This document shows, piece after piece, positions 2,178 through 29,486 of a DNA stretch of 29,615 nucleotides (positions are counted from its first letter, which is position 1; the number at the start of each line of letters is the position of its first letter). The position numbers were made by a program, and so were the translations under genes. This DNA comes from an uncultured Gammaproteobacteria bacterium (lineage in GTDB: Bacteria > Pseudomonadota > Gammaproteobacteria > JACCXJ01), in NCBI GenBank assembly GCA_963764725.1, contig CAVXTM010000008.1, positions 1 through 29,615 on the forward strand, written 5' to 3'. The notes beneath the pieces were generated by a model. It ran no database searches. It had not been told where the DNA came from and saw only the letters and a list, made by a program, of their open reading frames with translations.

Positions 2178-5100
2178 CTAATGAAAATCCCTCGATTGCG
2201 TGCTCAAGCGGCCCAGGAGATCGGTATGATCCTCAAGCTTGCGGGCGAGCACATGCACCACCTCCCCCTCGCGTTGCACCTCGCCGGTGACGCCGAGGAG
2301 GCGAGAGCCCAGCAGCTCTTTGCGTTGCCGATCGACGAGACTGCTCCAGACGATGAGATTGAGGTAGCCCGTCTCGTCTTCTAGCGTGACGAAGACCACC
2401 CCGGTCGCGGTCCCGGGGCGCTGGCGAGTGATGACGAGCCCCGCGGCGCGGACAGGCTCGCCGTGTGGGAGCACGAGGATCCGTTCGGCGGTCAGAAACG
2501 CGAGCCGTGCGAGCTTCGGGCGCAGGAGCGCCAAGGGGTGCCGTCTTAGCGTGAGACCCAGACTTCCGTAGTCGGCCACGATCGCCTCGCCCTCGGTGGG
2601 GCGGCGCAGTAAGGGCGAGGCTTCTTGGACGGTGGTGGCGGCGAGTAACGGCGTCGGTGCTTCGATGCCGAGCACGGCCCAGTACGCCTGAGGCCGCTGG
2701 CCGGCGAGCTGCACCAGCGCATCGGCCGCAGCGAGTGCCTCGAGGTCGCGGCGATTGAGTTCGGCACGCCGTATGAGATCCTGGACATCCATGAAGGCCT
2801 CCGTTGTGCGCGCTTCCACGAGACGCTCGGCACCGCTCTTCGAAAGGCCCTTGACCAAGCGCAGCCCGAGACGAAGCGCGGGTTGAGCATTCGATCCCCG
2901 CTCCAGGGTGCAGTCCCAGGCGCTGGCACCCACATCAACTGGACGCACCTCCACCCCGTGCCTGCGGGCGTCTTGCACGATCTGGGCGGGGGCATAAAAA
3001 CCCATGGGCTGGCTATTCAAAAGGGCGGCCGTGAAGGCCGCTGGGGCGTGACACTTGAGCCAGGCGGAGACATAGACCAAGAGCGCGAAGCTCGCGGCAT
3101 GGCTCTCGGGGAAGCCATACTCACCAAAGCCTTCGATTTGTTTATAGATCTGGCGGGCGAAGCGCTCCGAGTAGCCGCGCGCGCGCATCCCCTCGACGAG
3201 CCGGTGCTCGAAACCCTGGAGGCCGCCGTTGCGTTTCCAGGCGGCCATTGAGCGGCGCAAGCGATCGGCCTCGCCCGGGCTGAAGCCCGCGGCCACCATG
3301 GCAAGTTTAATGACCTGCTCCTGGAAGAGCGGCACCCCCAGGGTACGCCCGAGCACCTCGCGCACCTCTTCGCTCGGATAGCTCACGGGCTCGATCCCAT
3401 GCCGGCGGCGCAGGTAAGGATGCACCATCTCGCCTTGGATGGGCCCCGGCCGGATGATCGCGACCTCGATCACCAAGTCGTAGTAACAGGCGGGCTTGAG
3501 GCGCGGCAGCATGGCGATCTGCGCGCGGGACTCGATCTGGAAGACTCCCATGGTGTCCGCCCTTTGGATCATCGCGTAGGTTGCGGGGTCCTCGGGGGGC
3601 ACGGTGGCCAATGTGAGCTTCTTTCCCTCGAAGCCCTCGATGAGTTCGAAGGCGCGGCGGATCGCGGAGAGCATCCCGAGGCACAGGCAATCGACCTTGA
3701 GGAGCCCGAGCGCATCGAGATCATCCTTGTCCCATTGGATCACGGTGCGCTCGGGCATGGCGGCATTGCGTCCTCGGCGCGCCAAGCAGGGCCGCCTTCG
3801 GCCCCGGCCAGCTTTGGCTGGCGCTCGTACGAGCCCCTGGCCCTGGCTCTCTCGATGGGAACCAGGCGAGCCAGGGGACCGCGGGAGATGATCATCCCGC
3901 CCACATGCTGGGAGAGGTGGCGCGGGAAGCCCACGAGATCTCCAACGAGCTTGGTTAATCGGGCCAGCAGCGGATTATCGGGATCGAACCCCACCTCGCG
4001 CAGACGCTCGCGCGCGAGTCGTTTCCCATCCCACCAGTAGATGTTCTTCGCCAGCCGCTCGACTTGCTCGAGACTCATCCCGAGCGCCTTGCCGACATCC
4101 CGGATCGCGCTCTTAGCACGGTAGGTGATCACGGTCGCGGCGAGAGCGGTGCGCTCGCGCCCGTACTTCTCATAGAGGTACTGGATCACCTCCTCGCGCC
4201 GCTCATGCTCGAAGTCGACGTCGATGTCGGGCGGCTCCTGGCGCTCCTTGGAAACGAAGCGCTCGAAAAGCATCTCCATGCGCGCGGGATCCACCTCGGT
4301 GATGCCGAGGCAGTAACAGACCGCGGAGTTGGCCGCGCTCCCCCGTCCCTGGCAGAGGATACCGCGGCGGCGGGCAAAGGCGACAATATCGTGGACGGTC
4401 AAGAAATAGCTCTCGTAACCGAGCTCGGCGATGAGTTGCAGCTCGTGCCCGATCTGTGCCGTGACTTTCGCGGGTACCCCAGCAGGCCAGCGCCGTTGCA
4501 TGCCCGTCTCGGTCAAATCCCTGAGATACCGGGCCGGCGTCTCGCCCGCGGGCACGAGCTCCTCGGGATATTCGTAGCGGAGCTCGTCCAAGGAGAATTG
4601 ACAACGCTCGGCGATGCGTATCGTCTCGGTGAGTAATTCGGACGGATAAAGCCGCGCCAGGACTTCGCGCCGGCGCAAATGACGCTCGCTGTTCGGATAG
4701 AGCGCATAGCCCGCCGCCTTAACCGTGGTCTTGAGCCGGATCGCCGTCAAGGTATCTTGCAAGGCACGGCGCTCGCGCACGTGCATGTGCACATCCCCCG
4801 CGGCGACGAGCGAAATGCCCGTCTCACGGCTCAGGGCAGTGAGCCTTTCGAGCCTCTCGCCATCGCCGCCCTCGCGCAGTAGCTCGACAGCGATCCAAAG
4901 GCGCTCGGGAAAGCGCCCGGCGAGCCAGCCGGCCTCGGTCTTGAGCCCTTGCAGCTCGTCCAAGCGCCGCCCCGGTAGCAAGAGAGCGAGGCAATGATCG
5001 AGCCCGGCGGCGATGTCCGCGCGTTCCAGCCGGTAGCCCCCCTTGGCCGCTCGCCGCCGCCCTTGGGTGATGAGCGCCGAGAGCCGGCCGTAACCCTCTC

Positions 5101-5356
5101 GATCTTGCGCCAGGAAGACGAGCCGCGGTCCGTCGAGGAACTTCGCCTCAGTGCCAATGATGAGCTTGAGGCCGCGGTCTTTGGCCGCGCTATGGGCCCG
5201 CACCACACCGGCAAGCGAACACTCGTCGGTCAGCGCAATCGCCGTGTAGCCGAGTCGCTGGGCTTCTGCCAGCAACTCCTCGGGGAAGGAGGCGCCTCTC
5301 AAGAAAGTGAAGTTCGAGAGGCAGTGAAGCTCGGCGTAGCAGGGCAAATCCGGCAT
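2178..5356 (-). pseudogene. dnaE2: Error-prone DNA polymerase DnaE2/ImuC, interrupted by an 83-bp insertion at 3768-3850
   Basis: [44 protein letters not shown] and the C-terminal SRDFH. ORFs 3740-5368 and 2178-3785 join as VPIE|NAAM when 3768-3850 is removed. Confidence 0.93.
3768..3850. mobile_element. 83-bp hairpin-rich insertion element inside dnaE2
   Basis: Exact removal restores the frame. Ends are homologous to 7510-7554. Internal palindromes or hairpins GCTCGTACGAGC, CCAGC-TTTG-GCTGG and GGCGCGCC. No clear target duplication. Confidence 0.75.
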
Positions 5357-5389
5357 GGGAGATAACAACCGAGCGCCGCTTGAACCTAG

Positions 5390-6826
5390 TCACAGAATCC
5401 CGTGCACGAACCAGCGCCGCTTCCCCTCGACCTCGCGGAAGACCCAATAGCAAGCGCCGAGGGGATTTCGGGCGACAAAGTAATCGCGCCCCATGGGCTG
5501 TCCATCCCACCAGCCGCTCTCGATGCGCTCCCCGCGCTCTATTAGCTCCAAAGGCCCCCGAAGCCGCGGCCGTCCCTCCCGGACCACGAGCGCTTGGGGC
5601 GGGTCGAGCAACCACAGGGGACGGCTTCGCATGCCCGGTGACGAACTTGCCTCCCCGGGCGAGCAGAAGCACCACGCCGCTTCGGGCCGGTGATCGGGGA
5701 GTAGACGCAGGCCACGGACGGCATCCTCGCCTAAGCGTGCGCGCAGTCGCTCGATGAAGGCGAGGGACTGCGCTTGGCTTTGTTCCTTGCCGCCGGGCAG
5801 GAGCGCGAGCGTGACGCCTGCCAGGGGGCAGAGATCGTCGACGATGAGCCTCAATGCGCGGACAGGCTCGGGGAGCACCAGCCGCTCGAGCCGGCTACGC
5901 AGCAGTTGACCGAGATGCTCCGGATCGCGGCTCGGTGTGAGGAGCGTAAGATTGAACGGAGTCTCGCGCCGCTCGCGATGAATCAGCCGCCAATCGAGTT
6001 GCCGCGCACCCGCCCCTCGCGCCCGCAAGAAGCCCGTCAGCTCCAATAACAGCCGCCGCGCCGCGAACTGTAAAGCTTGGGTGTCCTCGGCCTCATGCGG
6101 GAGATCGAGGAGACGCCCGAAGCGCGCGGGGGGCTCGAAGGGTAGACGCGGGTCCGGCCGCTGGCCCGAGGCGCGGTCGAGCAGACGCACGAGCGCCGGG
6201 CCAAAGCGCCGGGCCAATCCGTCACGGGGCAGGCGCAGGCACTCGCCCACCTCGCGTAGCCCGAGCCCGGTGAGGGCCTCTGCGACGCGCTCATCTACGC
6301 CCAGAACCGCAAGCGGTAAGCGCCTGAGTAGCGCGTGCAGTTGCCGCGGATCGGTGATGCAAACCTCTCGGTGTGCCCTCACGAAAAAGATCGCCGCGAG
6401 CGGCGTGGGCGCGATCGCGAGGAGCGGTTGGTAGCCGAGGTCCAGCACGCCCTCACGCACCTGTTTCACGAGCTTGGCAACGCCCCCGAAGAGCGTGAGG
6501 CTCTGGCCGATCTCGAGCAGGAGAGCATCCGGCGGCGCCAGGCTCACAAACGAGGTGAACTGCCCGCACCAAGCGGCGAGCGCCTCGATGGCGGCCCGCT
6601 CGGCAGATCCACGGGGCGTGTACACTTTGATATCCCCGAGCGCCTGCGCCGCCCCGGCGCGCATCCCCGGCGCGACGCCGAGGGCGTAGGCGGCGCGGTT
6701 GCCTATCCGTATACGCGACTCGCGCCCGGGGGTCGTGAGGACACACGCCTGCGGCGAGTCCCCGAGCCCCAGCGCCTCGAGCGGGAGGGCGGGAAGACCG
6801 AGACAAAGCCAGAGCGAGGTGCGCAT
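5390..6826 (-). CDS. imuB: ImuB, catalytically inactive Y-family polymerase-like protein
   Basis: LLLEIGQSLTLFGG, APTPLAA, DHRPE, RPLWLL and ERIESGWWD...RDYF motifs; lies between imuA and dnaE2. Confidence 0.92.
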   Translation of the reverse strand: MRTSLWLCLGLPALPLEALGLGDSPQACVLTTPGRESRIRIGNRAAYALGVAPGMRAGAAQALGDIKVYTPRGSAERAAIEALAAWCGQFTSFVSLAPPDALLLEIGQSLTLFGGVAKLVKQVREGVLDLGYQPLLAIAPTPLAAIFFVRAHREVCITDPRQLHALLRRLPLAVLGVDERVAEALTGLGLREVGECLRLPRDGLARRFGPALVRLLDRASGQRPDPRLPFEPPARFGRLLDLPHEAEDTQALQFAARRLLLELTGFLRARGAGARQLDWRLIHRERRETPFNLTLLTPSRDPEHLGQLLRSRLERLVLPEPVRALRLIVDDLCPLAGVTLALLPGGKEQSQAQSLAFIERLRARLGEDAVRGLRLLPDHRPEAAWCFCSPGEASSSPGMRSRPLWLLDPPQALVVREGRPRLRGPLELIERGERIESGWWDGQPMGRDYFVARNPLGACYWVFREVEGKRRWFVHGIL

Positions 6827-6848: not shown

Positions 6849-7466
6849 TTAATCTCGCAAATCCAGATACACGGGCCTCGCACCCGCCCCACCCCGGCGC
6901 TTGAGGATGCTTACTGCCGCGAGCGGCCTGTGCGGCTCCAACATTAAGCGCAAGGCGGCGGGCGAGGCCTCACGGCGGGCCACGAGGGGGCGAAACAGGA
7001 GGCCCAGGCTTCGGCCCGCCTCGGCGGCGAGTTGCAGGCGGCGCAGTCCACGCCCGTCGAGACCACGCGGCCAGGCGAGCACGGCGCTACACGCCCCTGC
7101 GCGCAAGGATTGCTCCAGGGCCCAGAAGCGCTCTCGCGGACTTCCAATCCCCCACACCAGGAGCAGACGTGCGAGCGCGACGCCGTGGGCGGCAAGCGCC
7201 GGGCCATAAGGGAGATGCGGCGGGGAGATCCAGGCCAGCCACTGCTTGGATTGACTCAGGTGCGCGAGGGCCGGCATCACGAGCCGCAGCGCGCCGATGC
7301 CTTCCATGTCGGTCAAGATCTCCGTCAGCGCGCCTCGCGGCCATCCGCCACCGGGGAGGAGCGCATCGATCTCGGCGAAACCGCTCGGGATGGTCTCCGC
7401 CTCGACGGGCAACGCTCGGCCGCAGCGCCAAAGCCGGGGATCGCCCAGCACCGCCTCCAAGCTCAT
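6849..7466 (-). CDS. imuA: ImuA translesion-synthesis-associated RecA/SulA-like protein
   Basis: SGFAEIDALLPGGGWPRGALTEIL, WALEQSLRAG, LRRLQLAAE, SPAALRL and ILKRRGG motifs. Confidence 0.92.
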   Translation of the reverse strand: MSLEAVLGDPRLWRCGRALPVEAETIPSGFAEIDALLPGGGWPRGALTEILTDMEGIGALRLVMPALAHLSQSKQWLAWISPPHLPYGPALAAHGVALARLLLVWGIGSPRERFWALEQSLRAGACSAVLAWPRGLDGRGLRRLQLAAEAGRSLGLLFRPLVARREASPAALRLMLEPHRPLAAVSILKRRGGAGARPVYLDLRD

Positions 7467-7472
7467 ACCTTA

Positions 7473-7639
7473 TTCCGCTTCCATTTCATTCGTATAACTT
7501 TGTCGCCTTGCATCCTCGGCGCGCCAAACAGGCACCGTCCCTGGGCCTGGCTTTCCTCGCTCGCTCCTCGCCTACCACCCACGGTATGTCTCGTCGCTCG
7601 CTCGTCGCTTCGCGTTCTACTTTTGAACTGGAACCGGAA
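7473..7639. mobile_element. MITE-like element with 16-bp terminal inverted repeats and TTA direct repeats, carrying a nested 45-bp element (7510-7554)
   Basis: TTCCGCTTCCATTTCA (7473-7488) matches the reverse complement of 7624-7639 (TTCCGGTTCCAGTTCA) at 14/16. TTA occurs at 7470-7472 and 7640-7642. Confidence 0.65.
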
Positions 7640-8236
7640 TTACCGATAGAGGCGTAGCTTGGCGATCAGCACCCCCTGGATCGTGACGCGCGCGGGGTTG
7701 TACGCCATGGGTTTCAGCGCGGGGTTCTCGGGGATGAGGAGCACCTGAGCGTTTGGGCGCCGGCGAAAGCGCTTAAGGGTCGCCTCCTCGCCGTCGATGA
7801 GGGCCGAGACGATGTCCCCATTCTCCGCCGTCTCCTGGCGCCGGAGGAAGACGAGATCGCCATCGAGGATATCGGCCGCGATCATGGAGTCACCGGCTAC
7901 CTTCAAGACATAGGTCTCCGCCCCGCCGAGGAGAGAAGCCAAATCAATCTCTTCCTGGCCGGGGATGGCCTCGAGCGGCCGGCCGGCCGCGATGCGCCCG
8001 AGCAAGGGGAATACGAGCGGGCGCCGGTGTGGCGGGGCCAAGGCAATACCCCGCCAGCCTCCTTGCCCTTCCTGGAGGTAGCCTTTTCCGATCAGGGATC
8101 GCACATAACGGTGTAGAGTGCCCTTGGATCGGATACCCAGCGCCTGCCCGATCTCCCTGAGCAACGGAGGTTGGCCTTCCCGGTCGGTGTAATCCCGAAA
8201 GATTTCCAGCACGCGCTGTTCGGCAGGAGTCAGCAT
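7640..8236 (-). CDS. lexA: LexA transcriptional repressor
   Basis: N-terminal winged HTH (PPLLREIG), Ala-Gly cleavage site (GRIAAGRP), and Ser/Lys dyad (GDSM, ATLKR). Confidence 0.93.
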   Translation of the reverse strand: MLTPAEQRVLEIFRDYTDREGQPPLLREIGQALGIRSKGTLHRYVRSLIGKGYLQEGQGGWRGIALAPPHRRPLVFPLLGRIAAGRPLEAIPGQEEIDLASLLGGAETYVLKVAGDSMIAADILDGDLVFLRRQETAENGDIVSALIDGEEATLKRFRRRPNAQVLLIPENPALKPMAYNPARVTIQGVLIAKLRLYR

Positions 8237-15929: not shown

Positions 15930-16144
15930 AAGCAGAAATCACACCGAAATTCGTCCAATGGACCGTTTGCTCTGGCCTGGGTCTCTCGGATCTGGCCAGG
16001 ATGGCGCGAGGGGTTGCAAGGCGTGAAGCTTGCGGCTTGTGGTTCGATACAGTTCACCCCACTTGACTGGCTGCACCCCAGCTGAAGAACGCAGCCAAGA
16101 TGAGGACCATGGCGATGATAAGGGCGACGACAGAGGACGCCGAG

Positions 16145-17854
16145 ATGCGTTACGATGTGTTCATCTCCTACAGTCACGGAGCCGATAGCCGGACCGCCGC
16201 GCAACTCCAACGCGCCCTGCAAAGTATAGCCAAACCGTGGTATCGCCTACGTGGCATGCGCGTTTTCCGGGACCAAACGGATTTGTCAGTGGCACCAGAG
16301 GGATGGCCGGCCATCCAATCGGCACTCGCAGAATCTCGGTTCTTATTGTTGATGGCATCCAAACAGGCTGCGGGCTCCAAATGGATCGCTAAAGAACTCG
16401 CCTACTGGCGCACGAATCGCTCCACTGAAACACTACTGATCGCGCTGACGGATGGTGACATCGTTTGGGACGACAGCAGAGGCGACTTCGACTGGGAGCG
16501 GACGACGTCATTGCCAAAGCAGTTATCCGGCGCGAGTCGAAGTGAACCGTTTTGGGCCGACCTTCGATGGACGAGTGAGCAGCAAATATTGACGCTTCGG
16601 AATCCGGAGTTCCTGAGTTCCGTTGCCAAGCTGGCGGCGCCGGTACGTAATCTAGATGTCGCGGAACTTGTCAGTGAAGACCACAGGCAGCATCGTCGCA
16701 CGTTGCGTGCGGCATACGCCACGGGGGTGGCATTGATAACAATCCTGGGAATCGCCTTTTGGCAGTTTCAGTCGAGACTTGCGGCGATCGACCGAGAACG
16801 CGATCAACACGTTTTGGCATCCGTGGCGCGCGCGTACCAGGCACTGTCCGTCGATCCACTTAAAGCCGTTGACGAGGCGCGCGAGGCACTGACGGTGAAA
16901 GAGACTTCGGAAGGCAAGCAGGCCCTACGAACTGCCATGGAAGTCGGCCTGCGCCGCCGCGAGAACCGCCAGGACGAAAGGGAAGTACTTGGCTCAGGTG
17001 TCGGTTACCTGATGGAACGATGGCGACGCGGTGATGTTTTCACGAAGCTGCGAAATGACGGGCGTTACGCACTGGTGGCGAGCGAAAGGGGCAAAGATGG
17101 TCCCAATCCGCCGGGCAACGTTTACATGATCGGCATGGACAACCTGCGCACGAAGGAACTGCAGCCAGGCGATGCAGCCAAGGGTCGGCGTGTCGAGTAT
17201 ATGGGATTCAGCTCGTCAGGAAATGAAATATTCGTGGCTCGCCAGTTCTATCTGGACGTCTACGATCTCGAGGGGAATCGGACTAAGAGTGCGCAGCTTG
17301 AATACCACGCAAAACCGACCCATTTGATCGCTGGCATGTTCGGTTCCTTCGTCCTCGTCGGGGACACAGTCGGCCATGTCATGTTGGCGGACACATCATC
17401 CGAGAAGAGACCGCAATTGAAGGGCGGTCTGTACCCGGACGCCGCTTTGTTCATCGAAAGTAACTCGGAGGCCAACCGTGCGATCGTGGTCTTCGAGTCT
17501 GGGCGAGTCCAGTTCGTCGTCATCAATGACCCGTCCTCCCCGGCTGAGTATGAGCTCGGGACGAAGGGCACGATTCACGCTGCCTTCATTCCACGACCCC
17601 ACACGGGTCGTTTTCTCACGGCGAGTCAAACCGGTCAGATTGATGTGTGGCGATTTGCCGACGGCGCCCCCGTGAAGCTCGCATCGTTCAACCATGGAAC
17701 GACGCCGGTTGGGCTCGCAAGCTTCTCCGGCGACGGGGCGCGAATAATCTCCTTAAGCGACGACGACGTCTATAAGGTCTGGGATATCAGCAAACGGGAA
17801 TTGGTCGTTTCATATCCTTGGGGTATCCGTTCGACGAATCCCGTTCTCCATTGA
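16145..17854 (+). CDS. TIR-domain protein with a TM helix and a C-terminal WD40-like beta-propeller
   Basis: YDVFISYSH, VFRD and SKWIAKEL form the TIR domain. Hydrophobic AAYATGVALITILGIAFW follows, then WD-like blades (GQIDVW, VYKVWDI). GAGG RBS before ATG 16145; the ORF is open from 16100. Confidence 0.85.
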   Translation: MRYDVFISYSHGADSRTAAQLQRALQSIAKPWYRLRGMRVFRDQTDLSVAPEGWPAIQSALAESRFLLLMASKQAAGSKWIAKELAYWRTNRSTETLLIALTDGDIVWDDSRGDFDWERTTSLPKQLSGASRSEPFWADLRWTSEQQILTLRNPEFLSSVAKLAAPVRNLDVAELVSEDHRQHRRTLRAAYATGVALITILGIAFWQFQSRLAAIDRERDQHVLASVARAYQALSVDPLKAVDEAREALTVKETSEGKQALRTAMEVGLRRRENRQDEREVLGSGVGYLMERWRRGDVFTKLRNDGRYALVASERGKDGPNPPGNVYMIGMDNLRTKELQPGDAAKGRRVEYMGFSSSGNEIFVARQFYLDVYDLEGNRTKSAQLEYHAKPTHLIAGMFGSFVLVGDTVGHVMLADTSSEKRPQLKGGLYPDAALFIESNSEANRAIVVFESGRVQFVVINDPSSPAEYELGTKGTIHAAFIPRPHTGRFLTASQTGQIDVWRFADGAPVKLASFNHGTTPVGLASFSGDGARIISLSDDDVYKVWDISKRELVVSYPWGIRSTNPVLH

Positions 17855-28457: not shown

Positions 28458-29486
28458 CTACGCGTTGACCGAAACCCGCGCGCGGTAACCCTCGTCTCGC
28501 CTCAGGAGCGCCCAGATCGCCCGAGCGCTCTTGTTGGCCACCGCCACCGCTGCGATGTTCTTGTTGCGCCGTTTGACGAGGTCGTTGATCCACCGGCTCT
28601 GGGCGTCGGTCTTCTTGGCCGCCGCCTTCACCACGGACCGCGCCCCGTGGATGAGCAGAGTGCGCAGGTAGGTATCGCCCCGCTTGCTGATCCCCAGGAG
28701 CTTGGGCTTGCCCCCGCTCGAATCCTGCCGCGGCACGAGCCCCACCCAGGCCGCGACCTGCCGCCCGGACTCGAACGCTCGACCATCACCGACCGAGGCG
28801 ACGGCCGCCGTCGCCGTGATCGGCCCTACCCCCGGCATCCGGCCAATCCTCTGGCACGCCTCGCTCGCATGGTAGAGCCCTTGGAGCTTGACGCCGTAGG
28901 CCCCCACTTGCCGGTCCAGCTCCAGGACCTGCCGGTGGAGATCGGCAAACAGCTCTCGCGCCAAGCCACTCAGGCCGTTCTCGCCGTCTTCCAAGATCTC
29001 CGGCAGGCGCTTGCGTACCTGCGCCAAGCCCTGACCGATGACGATGCCATACTCGCCTAACAAACCCCGCAGCCGGTTTGCCTGCGCGGTGCGTTCCTTT
29101 ACCAACCCACTGCGTACCCGGTGCAGCGCCAGAATGTCTTGGCTCTCGGTGCTCTTCACCGGCACAAAACGCATGTTCGGGCGCCCCACCGCCTCGCAGA
29201 TTGCCTCCGCGTCGTTCTTGTCATTCTTGTTCCCCTTCACGTAGGGCTTGACGAACTGCGGGCTGATGAGCCTGACCGTATGCCCGAGCTTCCCCAGCTC
29301 CCGCGCCCAGTAGTGTGCGCCGGCGCAGGCTTCGATCCCTACCACGCAAGGGTCGAGGTTGGCGAAGAACGCCAAGACCTGCCCTCGCCTGAGCGACTTG
29401 CGCACCGCGACCTTCCCCTTCCCGTCCACACCGTGTGCCTGAAAGACATTCTTTGCAATGTCTAACCCGATTGTTGTAACGTTCAT
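28458..29486 (-). CDS. IS110-family DEDD transposase/recombinase
   Basis: IGLDIAK, GIEAC and KNDKNDAEAI (DEDD residues); PGVGP, GLVP...SSGG and KRGD.YLR. Confidence 0.96.
   Translation of the reverse strand: MNVTTIGLDIAKNVFQAHGVDGKGKVAVRKSLRRGQVLAFFANLDPCVVGIEACAGAHYWARELGKLGHTVRLISPQFVKPYVKGNKNDKNDAEAICEAVGRPNMRFVPVKSTESQDILALHRVRSGLVKERTAQANRLRGLLGEYGIVIGQGLAQVRKRLPEILEDGENGLSGLARELFADLHRQVLELDRQVGAYGVKLQGLYHASEACQRIGRMPGVGPITATAAVASVGDGRAFESGRQVAAWVGLVPRQDSSGGKPKLLGISKRGDTYLRTLLIHGARSVVKAAAKKTDAQSRWINDLVKRRNKNIAAVAVANKSARAIWALLRRDEGYRARVSVNA

Follow-up and report, generated by a model that had tools for sequence, protein, structure and literature searches.

Why is dnaE2, the last gene of a lexA-imuA-imuB-dnaE2 cluster, broken into two open reading frames (ORFs) in an uncultured Gammaproteobacteria bacterium, and what are the 83 bp that separate its halves? 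The locus lies near the start of contig CAVXTM010000008.1 (assembly GCA_963764725.1), of which we analysed positions 1 to 29,615 (the window). We conclude, with a probability of roughly 0.75, that the 83 bp belong to a family of non-autonomous, very small insertion elements with hairpins, and that this copy lacks one C, so that dnaE2 is frameshifted. The features on which the argument turns are the following.

2178-5368, minus strand: dnaE2, last gene of the lexA-imuA-imuB-dnaE2 cluster, split in two ORFs.
3851..5368, minus strand: N-terminal part of dnaE2, with the PHP and DNA_pol3_alpha domains (Pfam), ending in LVPIE.
2178..3767, minus strand: C-terminal part of dnaE2, with the finger, HHH_6 and OB domains (Pfam), beginning with NAAMPER and out of frame with the N-terminal part.
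3768..3850, plus strand: long-form element copy of 83 bp (canonical 84, subtype L-a), with recurrent ends and exact empty orthologous sites.
3763..3767, plus strand: target pentanucleotide GCATT, abutting the insertion point on its 5' side; the next base is the C at 3851, which fits gCgTT|C (the bar marks the insertion point).
7510..7554, plus strand: short-form element copy of 45 bp, between lexA and imuA.

The gene is identified as dnaE2, encoding the error-prone polymerase III alpha subunit (ImuC), by its PHP, DNA_pol3_alpha, finger, HHH and OB domains and by the imuA-imuB-dnaE2 cassette beside lexA. The division of the Pfam domains falls at the insert, with PHP and DNA_pol3_alpha on one side and finger, HHH_6 and OB on the other. 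A tblastn search of the genome revealed no second dnaE2, the sole other match being dnaE1 on contig C15. On the minus strand the sequence reads ...CTGGTTCCCATCGAG, then the 83 nt, then AATGCCGCCATGCCCGAG..., which places the insert between LVPIE and NAAMPER in the coding sequence; its boundary is ambiguous by one T (3767-3849 or 3768-3850). In its own orientation, GCGTCC...GGCTCT, the element lies on the plus strand, antisense to dnaE2. The ORFs of the split gene extend from 3740 to 5368 (N-terminal part) and from 2178 to 3785 (C-terminal part), and both the incoming and the outgoing reading frame are open through the 83 nt, as a first-pass annotation made from the letters of the window had pointed out.

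The same annotation had proposed an exact insertion at VPIE|NAAM without target duplication. We compared a 621-nt query around the site with 40 related genomes, 14 from the same taxonomic family and 26 from other families. Five of them carry an exact empty site, namely G001, G004 and G006 from the genus of this bacterium, and G010 and G013 from elsewhere in its family; in these orthologues the flanks are joined exactly, with zero extra or lost bases and no duplication of the target, which bears out the proposal. The empty joint (3766>3850) is also present in metagenome contigs of three runs (X1, X2, X3); the metagenome contigs compared are those of relatives. No run with the source reads was found, the best one containing 0.41 of the sampled words, and uncovered stretches carry no evidential weight. 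In three further genomes of the genus the same position is filled, with 45 bp in G008, 45 bp in G002 and 54 bp in G003, and the dnaE2 ORFs of these relatives are uninterrupted and in frame (1052, 1100 and 1055 aa, respectively). The 54-bp version corresponds to the L-b subtype of the long form minus 24 nt, together with a loss of 6 nt of dnaE2, each loss being a multiple of three. Four of the genomes (G001, G002, G008 and G010) are unpublished; public data back each allele class, namely the empty site (G004, G006, G013), the 54-bp insert (G003, protein P0121), the 45-bp insert (P0124) and the 84-bp insert (P0122, P0123).

The best 120 database matches to this DnaE2 region indicate how the protein accommodates the element. 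Four of them carry an element insert, 102 lack it, 13 could not be classified by pattern and 1 has an unrelated insert. P0122 and P0123 (1064 aa) contain the entire 28-residue translation of the L-b form in frame, P0124 (1047 aa; it stands for 9 clustered sequences, and NCBI calls it an error-prone DNA polymerase) contains the 15-residue short form, and P0121 contains 18 residues. In alignment with the E. coli Pol III alpha subunit, the insertion site falls at the loop APLY-CDEEGK-HPVTQFDK, just before KFDFLGL; we take this motif to hold the catalytic D555 (E. coli numbering), which would place the insert about 20 residues ahead of it, in a variable loop of the palm domain. P0122 was modelled with AlphaFold2 on an alignment of 52 sequences (mean predicted local distance difference test score, pLDDT, 79.7; predicted template modelling score 0.77); the inserted residues 510-539 alone have pLDDT < 50 and no secondary structure, and are flanked by folded strands. 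The model suggests that an in-frame insert is tolerated as a disordered loop of DnaE2. The match with an unrelated insert is a public DnaE2 of 1091 aa (P0225), with 36 residues (TAGSRGQEGKGVRPLFSPAFGEAGEKQGFEPFPLDV) in the same loop, four residues past the element site; this insert could be a different small element, and it adds to the evidence for a permissive loop.

The insert is one of many. A motif scan permitting 3 mismatches returned mainly false positives here and gave way to a stricter filter. Counting further copies, a check suggested by the first-pass annotation, yields 29 copies with both ends in this genome; 9 lie inside copies of a 1.69-kb insertion sequence (IS) and 4 inside copies of an IS5-like element, and since many of the 29 thus sit in multiplied IS copies, the number of independent sites is about 13. 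An exact 23-nt seed finds 71 loci in public species genomes, of which 52 are 45 bp, 10 are 84 bp, 3 are 44 bp and one each is 43, 85 and 86 bp, with 3 lacking a recognisable right end. Their hosts are nearly all metagenome-assembled genomes (MAGs) labelled Gammaproteobacteria or Chromatiales, one of them USCg_Taylor; outside those labels there is one locus each in Aestuariivirga, Acidobacteria and an unclassified MAG. The same seed finds 0 loci in viral contigs. Together with 20 fetched copies and those of this genome, the seed loci give 100 de-duplicated copies. Outside this genome these measure 45 bp (49 copies), 84 bp (20), 44 bp (3) and 43, 69, 82, 85 and 86 bp (one each); within it, 45 bp (13), 44 bp (4), 46 bp (2), 43 bp (1) and 83 bp (3). 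Element-type matches occur in 14 of 14 genomes of the taxonomic family of the window and, among the matches listed (67 rows lie outside them), in none of the 26 genomes of other families. The recurrence of the family is far beyond chance and, as far as we searched, it is confined to one family of uncultured Gammaproteobacteria.

The two sizes, 45 bp (short) and 84 bp (long), both amount to whole codons. The short form reads GCRTCCTCGGCGCGCC followed by AAGCAGGGCCA-YTCCC-TGGCCCTG(G)CTT and a final T or C, that is, a 16-nt 5' arm and then a predicted 11-bp stem with one bulged G. In the long form 42 nt stand in place of the 3-nt loop core (AYT). This interior contains a 6-bp hairpin (GGGCCG CCTT CGGCCC), a 6-7-bp hairpin (GCCAGCC TTC GGCTGGC) and a third short palindrome, and it distinguishes two subtypes, L-a (...GCCAGCCTTCGGCTGGCGCTCGTACGAGC...) and L-b (...GCCAGCTTCGCTGGCGCTCGGGTACTCGC...). 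In the second hairpin, compensatory changes replace C-G by U-A in 3 copies and A-U by G-C in 1, with one-sided intermediates present; the main stem of the short form occurs as CAGGGCC/GGCCCTG and as CAGGCCC/GGGCCTG. The element ends, GCATCC... and ...GGCTTT, are not terminal inverted repeats. The ends of the insert in dnaE2 had been matched to the 45-bp unit at 7510-7554, and the two copies do agree over an identical left arm of 26 nt and an identical right arm of 17 nt, the difference (83-45 = 38) being the roughly 38 extra bp noticed in the middle. All six reading frames are free of stops in the short, L-a and L-b consensus sequences, which holds for 11% of 45-nt and 2% of 84-nt windows of the genome. 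Six open frames and two lengths in multiples of three suggest adaptation to coding sequence or else survivorship, without being proof of either.

The insertion target was derived from the flanks of the 100 copies, which reduce to 36 contexts, with one representative of each entering the logo. Counts out of 36 are G 18 at -5, C 26 at -4, G 19 at -3, T 25 at -2, T 32 at -1 and C 33 at +1. The element inserts between the T and the C of a gCgTT|C-like site; the minus-strand context GAG(G)|AA(G/T)GC, noticed earlier as common to the two copies of the window, is the reverse complement of this family-wide motif. The right end of the element, GGCT(T/C)(T/C), resembles its own target. Within every empty/filled pair the element accounts for the whole difference, and not a base is duplicated. 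Flank and element dinucleotides are often unlike, and for this reason neither a 2-nt target duplication nor a common core dinucleotide was accepted as a general rule.

The most frequent contexts are other repeat families, of which this genome has empty copies. One of them, context C (...CCTT|CTCCCggaGGGAGAAGG), is a repeat with a 9-bp hairpin; 18 sites are empty and 0 filled here, and other genomes do have filled ones. A palindromic repeat of about 150 bp supplies contexts A and B, one in each arm, with 5 empty and 3 filled sites for A and 11 empty and 2 filled for B in this genome. Two more host repeat families likewise occur empty. As observations on these hosts in their own right, the context-C type is a REP-like repeat (...TCCCCTCATCCTAACCTTCTCCCGGAGGGAGAAGGGAC...) with a perfect 9-bp hairpin, present at 18 sites (e.g. 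C16:113410 and C9:88437), a favoured target of the element in sister genomes that is never filled in this one; and the palindromic repeat, gtgaaaaaa...GGTCGCGTT|CCGCCGGAGCGCAGGAACCGGAGTGTATATTGAAATACATGAGGATTCCGAGCACCGCCGG|AACGCGAGATCCCGAGCGCAGTAGGttttttcac, has two symmetric insertion sites (C15:165842, C18:509013, C5:63661 and others).

Filled and empty orthologous and paralogous sites are thus found at dnaE2, at the IS gene, at RAYT-like genes and at four other repeat families, as expected of the tiny mobile element without target duplication that the first-pass annotation had proposed. If the element were instead immobile, an ancestral conserved structured RNA or protein-binding motif that some lineages have lost or converted, the high sequence conservation of the copies, their UUCG-like loops and the position of several just upstream of genes would be accounted for. 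Rfam searches (gathering cut-offs over the whole window, E-value mode over 3650-3950) returned only a tRNA and chance-level matches, and with no Rfam match we rejected identity with a structured-RNA family. The copies also lie in either orientation to the host gene and use three of the six frames inside unrelated genes, are exactly present or absent at many unrelated sites (including the 18 empty copies of one host repeat), and have a defined insertion target. We regard an immobile element as extremely improbable.

At least 5 of the 36 contexts lie inside genes, and copies are found in genes for an IS91 transposase, a 505-aa-type IS protein, RAYT-like proteins and an IS5-like transposase, as well as in dnaE2; three reading frames of the element are in use across these hosts. 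The 1.69-kb IS (C18:212320-214069, with 8 further copies, e.g. C1:193602 and C15:364367) carries the 45-bp element in frame in every copy. Its protein has no Pfam match and measures 520 aa from the Met here, compared with 500-513 aa in all 120 listed homologues; 7918 of 8000 scored homologues have E <= 1e-10, and NCBI labels some of them 'MarR family transcriptional regulator'. Alignment with five homologues, one of them 94% identical, locates 15 extra residues (LHPRRAKQGHSLALA) between MQVE and F(A/S)TDV, with the insertion inside a TT|C codon. In one IS copy an insertion of about 1155 bp follows the first 5 nt of the nested 45-bp element (C11:178481-178525), which makes three nesting levels. 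The IS91-family transposase (Y2_Tnp and Zn_Tnp_IS91) has RARARDWPCLARRGC between GFM and RVRYYG, and the IS5-like transposase a 44-bp copy near its C-terminus.

In the RAYT-like genes, the short or the long form stands between KGE and RGIWQRRFWEH. This site is empty in a paralogue on C9 and in orthologues of G013 and G011, and holds the long form in frame in G006. In the G004 orthologue (L136, C64) the element is absent, and so are 8 nt of the gene beside the insertion point, which may be the footprint of an imprecise excision. This genome has four RAYT-like (IS200-like Y1) paralogues, all frameshifted or deleted (C15:171600-172170, C10:308-952, C1:466257-466831 and C9:112290-112984); an intact paralogue of about 175 aa is found in G003 (L140).

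Which state the dnaE2 copy is in depends on a single base. The copy belongs to subtype L-a (GGCCAGC-TTTGGCTGGC at 3806-3822, with T at 3815) and differs from the consensus as follows.

3812..3815, plus strand: two differences from the 84-bp consensus GGCCAGCCTTCGGCTGGC, one C lost at 3811/3812 and T3815 in place of the consensus C.

An 84-bp copy from the unpublished genome G001 (L126) has the same T and keeps both Cs. Contigs of 4 metagenome runs have an extra C behind 3811 and a C at 3815, and a contig of run X7, compared over 3786-3847, shows 0 other letters and one extra base. Since L126 and the X7 contig differ from it only in this way, a single deletion separates the window copy from a known 84-bp variant. 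The lost C sits in the loop of the central hairpin. With 83 instead of 84 bp dnaE2 is frameshifted: the frame is lost 39 nt into the insert and then meets a stop at 3740-3742. Taken at face value, the ImuA-ImuB-DnaE2 mutasome here is without its polymerase.

Lineage-specific changes in the dnaE2 of this genome (G000) number 45 synonymous and 22 non-synonymous, and 35 and 13 downstream of the frameshift, a pattern within the range of six relatives (0.28-0.95). Because the downstream substitutions still look selected, dnaE2 has not been long adrift as a pseudogene, and a recent, real frameshift, again at roughly 0.75, is our reading of its state. Of the fates proposed by the first-pass annotation, inactivation of the mutator polymerase is the one we grade as the most likely present state, through the frameshift caused by the 83-bp copy; excision has gained indirect support, from precise empty sites nested among filled lineages.

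The annotation had also guessed that the true length could be 84 bp, and this fits the family: 84 bp is the length of 20 of the 23 long copies outside this genome, and public DnaE2 proteins exist with the whole 28-residue insert in frame. On this basis an assembly or base-calling error would leave dnaE2 intact, with a 28-residue loop as in P0122 and P0123. The window copy differs from L126 only by one C of a CC pair, the X7 contig matches 3786-3847 save for one gap, and constraint downstream is not relaxed (35 synonymous, 13 non-synonymous). In addition, all three long copies of this genome (C8:3768, C10:105443 and C1:58620) measure 83 bp, and each has lost a different single base within a run of G or C, for which reason an assembly artefact at GC-rich hairpins is possible, and two 1-nt indels fall in G/C runs among six near-identical IS copies. 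However, the open frames of rpoB, rpoC and three aminoacyl-tRNA synthetase genes (1367, 1427, 1053, 957 and 822 aa) amount to about 17 kb of essential genes without a frameshift, and the other scanned ORFs of the window, 18 of 24 of which have ordinary Pfam matches, show none either, so the general indel error rate is low. Genuine length variants (43, 44, 69, 82, 85 and 86 bp) occur in other assemblies, and the three 83-bp copies lost different bases and bear other substitutions, like old decaying copies. We consider such an error unlikely.

A second way of keeping the polymerase would be recoding, also among the earlier suggestions, through two elements of the mRNA.

3812..3817, minus strand: putative -1 slip site, mRNA CCA-AAG (A-AAG), created by the T3815 variant; speculative.
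3787..3806, minus strand: predicted 8-bp GC-rich hairpin, mRNA CGGGGCCG AAGG CGGCCCUG, 5 nt downstream of A-AAG; this is hairpin 1 of the element.

A -1 ribosomal slip here, stimulated by the hairpin, would yield a low level of full-length DnaE2 with the 28-residue insert, and so a throttle on the SOS mutator. The slip on AAG would give back exactly the canonical read-through peptide, the position of the hairpin and its 5-nt spacing are suitable, and purifying selection still acts on the C-terminal half. ARAGORN found 41 tRNA genes in the genome, a single one of them for tRNA-Lys, with anticodon UUU; a single tRNA-Lys(UUU) makes A-AAG shifty in E. coli dnaX and in IS3. On the other hand, GCCAAAG is not a canonical X-XXY-YYZ heptamer and the P-site tRNA-Pro would be unable to re-pair, the arrangement is restricted to one copy with no conservation, and the selection signal has a simpler explanation in a recent mutation or an error. 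Recoding is therefore very improbable in our judgement, and a recent, real frameshift is the reading that we carry forward.

The history of the locus was examined with a tree of the dnaE2 flanks (2,991 columns). The long-form genomes G000 and G003 form a clade (support 100/99), whose sister is the pair of empty genomes G006 and G001 (95/100); the short-form genomes G008 and G002 and the empty G004 are unresolved, and the outgroups are empty. To produce this pattern, the element must have been gained twice or more, or gained once and then precisely lost on two or more occasions. The four filled alleles are alike in their arms, with the uncommon variants GCG... and ...CTCT, and this speaks for a single ancestral insertion at dnaE2, yet their interiors differ (short, L-a or L-b). 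Elsewhere, the long copy at C10:105443 and the short copy at the orthologous site of G003 both have private CCTAG changes and the CAGGCCC stem, and each multi-copy context contains both sizes.

A nuclease of the HUH type (Y1, IS200/RAYT-like), supplied in trans and acting on single-stranded DNA, could recognise the hairpin of the element and cleave both the target and the right end of the element behind ...YT, and such cuts would yield seamless insertion as well as seamless excision. Several features fit this logic, which is known from IS200/IS605 and TnpA-REP (PMC8266576; for REPIN excisions, PMC3116915), namely seamless insertion 3' of a short motif, a motif-like right end, a hairpin, the lack of inverted repeats and exact empty sites. 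We hold the odds of such a single-strand mechanism somewhat below even, because a GTAG tag, a flanking RAYT, a two-hairpin architecture and a full-length element are all lacking.

A core-pairing conservative site-specific recombinase (IS110-type DEDD, serine or tyrosine), with GCgTT as the target and GCTTT as the joined ends, would leave the identity of the insert and the frameshift unaffected. With YT closing the left flank and YT or TC closing the element, the two junctions have similar dinucleotides, as a crossover inside a core would leave them; insertion and loss are both seamless; and IS110-family genes are present, for example at 28458-29486 of the window. Many targets are hairpins of other repeats, and IS110-type elements favour hairpins of repeats as targets. 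Nevertheless, the dinucleotide of the flank often differs from the last dinucleotide of the element (in context B, TT versus TC in most copies), the target holds information over only about 5-6 nt, and no copy of the element is linked to a recombinase gene. We therefore think a recombinase rather unlikely; mechanisms other than these two take the remaining odds.

Against the picture of a mobile hairpin element stand a number of observations, in addition to the shared one-base deficit of the long copies in this genome. The predicted folds have weak z-scores (-1.0 to -1.9 versus shuffles), because the sequence of the element is very GC-rich, and six open frames are not rare for its composition (24%, 13% and 19% of shuffles for the short, L-a and L-b forms). 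No cognate enzyme was found: 0 of 6 Y1_Tnp (PF01797) loci in this genome are flanked by the element within 2.5 kb on either side, and no long element sharing both ends is among this genome's copies or the public seed loci. A single hairpin is present, in place of the two subterminal hairpins of IS200/IS605. The pattern of shared arms and differing interiors suggests that the interior was exchanged in situ with the arms kept, which simple excision and reinsertion does not explain; one idea is short-patch conversion from other copies after breakage of the hairpin. Two candidate partners were rejected. An IS200-like element on C12 has unrelated ends (a TCAA-type right end), and the RAYT-like genes, all degenerate in this genome, are flanked by a different, GTAG-tagged REP (GTAGGGCGGAAC...GTTCCGCC) and turned out to be targets. 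The protein of the 1.69-kb IS likewise appears solely as a target in these data, and inspection by eye for IS608-style guide tetranucleotides, in which bases just 5' of the stem would pair with the target, gave no convincing match.

More far-reaching, and in our view improbable, is the possibility that the family is a new kind of gene-dwelling selfish DNA, built of whole codons and stop-free, entering and leaving seamlessly at gCgTT|C, with an interior swapped between 3 nt and 42 nt between unchanged arms, and moved by a nuclease class new to transposition, such as the 505-aa IS protein. The dnaE2 copy would then be a reversible switch of SOS mutagenesis with four states: no insert, 15 aa, 28 aa, or a frameshift relieved by a leaky -1 slip.

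Having set out these alternatives, we return to the hairpin insertion element and its relation to known systems, which we compare as the cited papers describe them. Rickettsia palindromic elements (RPEs; Ogata et al. 2000, as reviewed in PMC10969869) are palindromic repeats of about 100-150 bp that are translated in frame in unrelated genes. Like them, the element is a dispersed, hairpin-forming family (29 copies here, 71 seed loci) with no associated transposase known, and it is inserted in frame in unrelated genes whose ORFs are preserved (15, 18 or 28 residues in dnaE2, 15 in the IS protein, and the IS91 and RAYT-like genes), as extra peptide segments compatible with the fold; in dnaE2 the alignment with the E. 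coli loop and the AlphaFold2 model indicate a surface loop. Unlike RPEs, compared here by description, it measures 45 or 84 bp and belongs to free-living Gammaproteobacteria of very high GC content, has the gCgTT|C target without duplication, comes in two discrete sizes with an exchangeable interior, and invades other repeats.

TnpA-REP cuts at CT 5' and 3' of REP (PMC8266576), and seamless excision events are reported for REPINs (PMC3116915). The element resembles REP/RAYT systems (REPtrons) and REPINs in its short hairpin with a conserved single-stranded 5' part and in the lack of inverted terminal repeats, and cutting after ...YT would fit. It differs in that the 16 nt 5' of the stem are GCRTCCTCGGCGCGCC, with no GTAG and with CGTC in the GCG variant only, 11 nt from the stem; in that the element flanks no RAYT gene, those that are RAYT-like having a GTAG-REP of their own and being targets; and in that it has about 30 copies, some inside genes, whereas REPs number hundreds and are strictly extragenic.

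IS200/IS605 elements insert 3' of a short specific sequence without duplication, have no inverted repeats, excise precisely and are recognised through hairpins (PMC8266576; see also PMC6006769). With these and their non-autonomous derivatives the element has in common the insertion 3' of a specific tetra- or pentanucleotide (gCgTT|, then C in 33 of 36 contexts), the absence of terminal inverted repeats and, as the filled/empty pairs attest, of target-site duplication, and exact empty sites. Unlike them, it has a single hairpin, with no left- and right-end hairpins and guide tetranucleotides, and no full-length TnpA partner with the same ends. A classical miniature inverted-repeat transposable element (MITE) was rejected, as the ends are not inverted repeats and no empty/filled pair shows a duplication. 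The small dispersed repeats (SDRs) of Nostoc punctiforme, reportedly described by Elhai and colleagues in 2008, are said to be very small hairpin-forming mobile repeats of about 21-27 bp in cyanobacteria that show no obvious duplication, nest, and can lie in genes; the likeness is one of description. In effect, the element is RPE-like, an in-frame palindromic element, with REP- or IS200-like insertion behaviour, and by its defining features a member of none of these groups. We found no publication on this family in a literature search aimed at known analogues and not at this lineage.

The remaining features of the locus concern the rest of the SOS cluster and the spacer that hosts the 45-bp copy.

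5390..6826, minus strand: imuB, IMS family (Pfam), intact.
6849..7466, minus strand: imuA, SulA-like (Pfam), intact.
7640..8236, minus strand: lexA, LexA_DNA_bind and Peptidase_S24 (Pfam), directly upstream of imuA-imuB-dnaE2.
7468..7642, no strand assigned: 176-bp repeat that occupies the entire lexA-imuA spacer and hosts the 45-bp copy, its ends being imperfect 14-nt inverted repeats.

The inverted ends of the spacer repeat are TTATTCCGCTTCCA and TGGAACCGGAATTA, and a GTTC-N7-GAAC palindrome lies inside. A second copy, 95% identical, is found at C1:2570-2742, between cas1 and cas2, and in another genome (L058) the 176-bp unit holds a long-form copy. The repeat looks like a small MITE with the 45-bp element nested in it. 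Elsewhere in the window, the IS110-family transposase gene at 28458-29486 (minus strand; DEDD_Tnp_IS110 and Transposase_20) lies at the contig end, and 16100-17854 (plus strand) encodes a 584-aa protein with an N-terminal TIR_2 domain and a C-terminal WD-like beta-propeller, possibly a defence or signalling gene.

For the biology of these bacteria, the family shows how small a working mobile element can be, since 45 nt (a hairpin and a 16-nt arm) recur as seamless insertions at a measurable target (gCgTT|C), are apparently lost just as seamlessly, and have no recognisable transposase nearby. Because both sizes are whole-codon and stop-free, the element can sit as a harmless loop in genes, among them the catalytic domain of the SOS mutator polymerase and several transposases, and a single-base slip then turns this tolerated passenger into a gene knockout. 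The locus thereby offers a testable case of selfish DNA modulating a mutagenesis pathway, and the element a defined substrate for a nuclease search in a lineage of uncultured relatives of atmospheric methane oxidisers. For annotation, such inserts explain odd Arg/Gly/Pro-rich loops of 15 to 28 residues, and split genes, in these MAGs.

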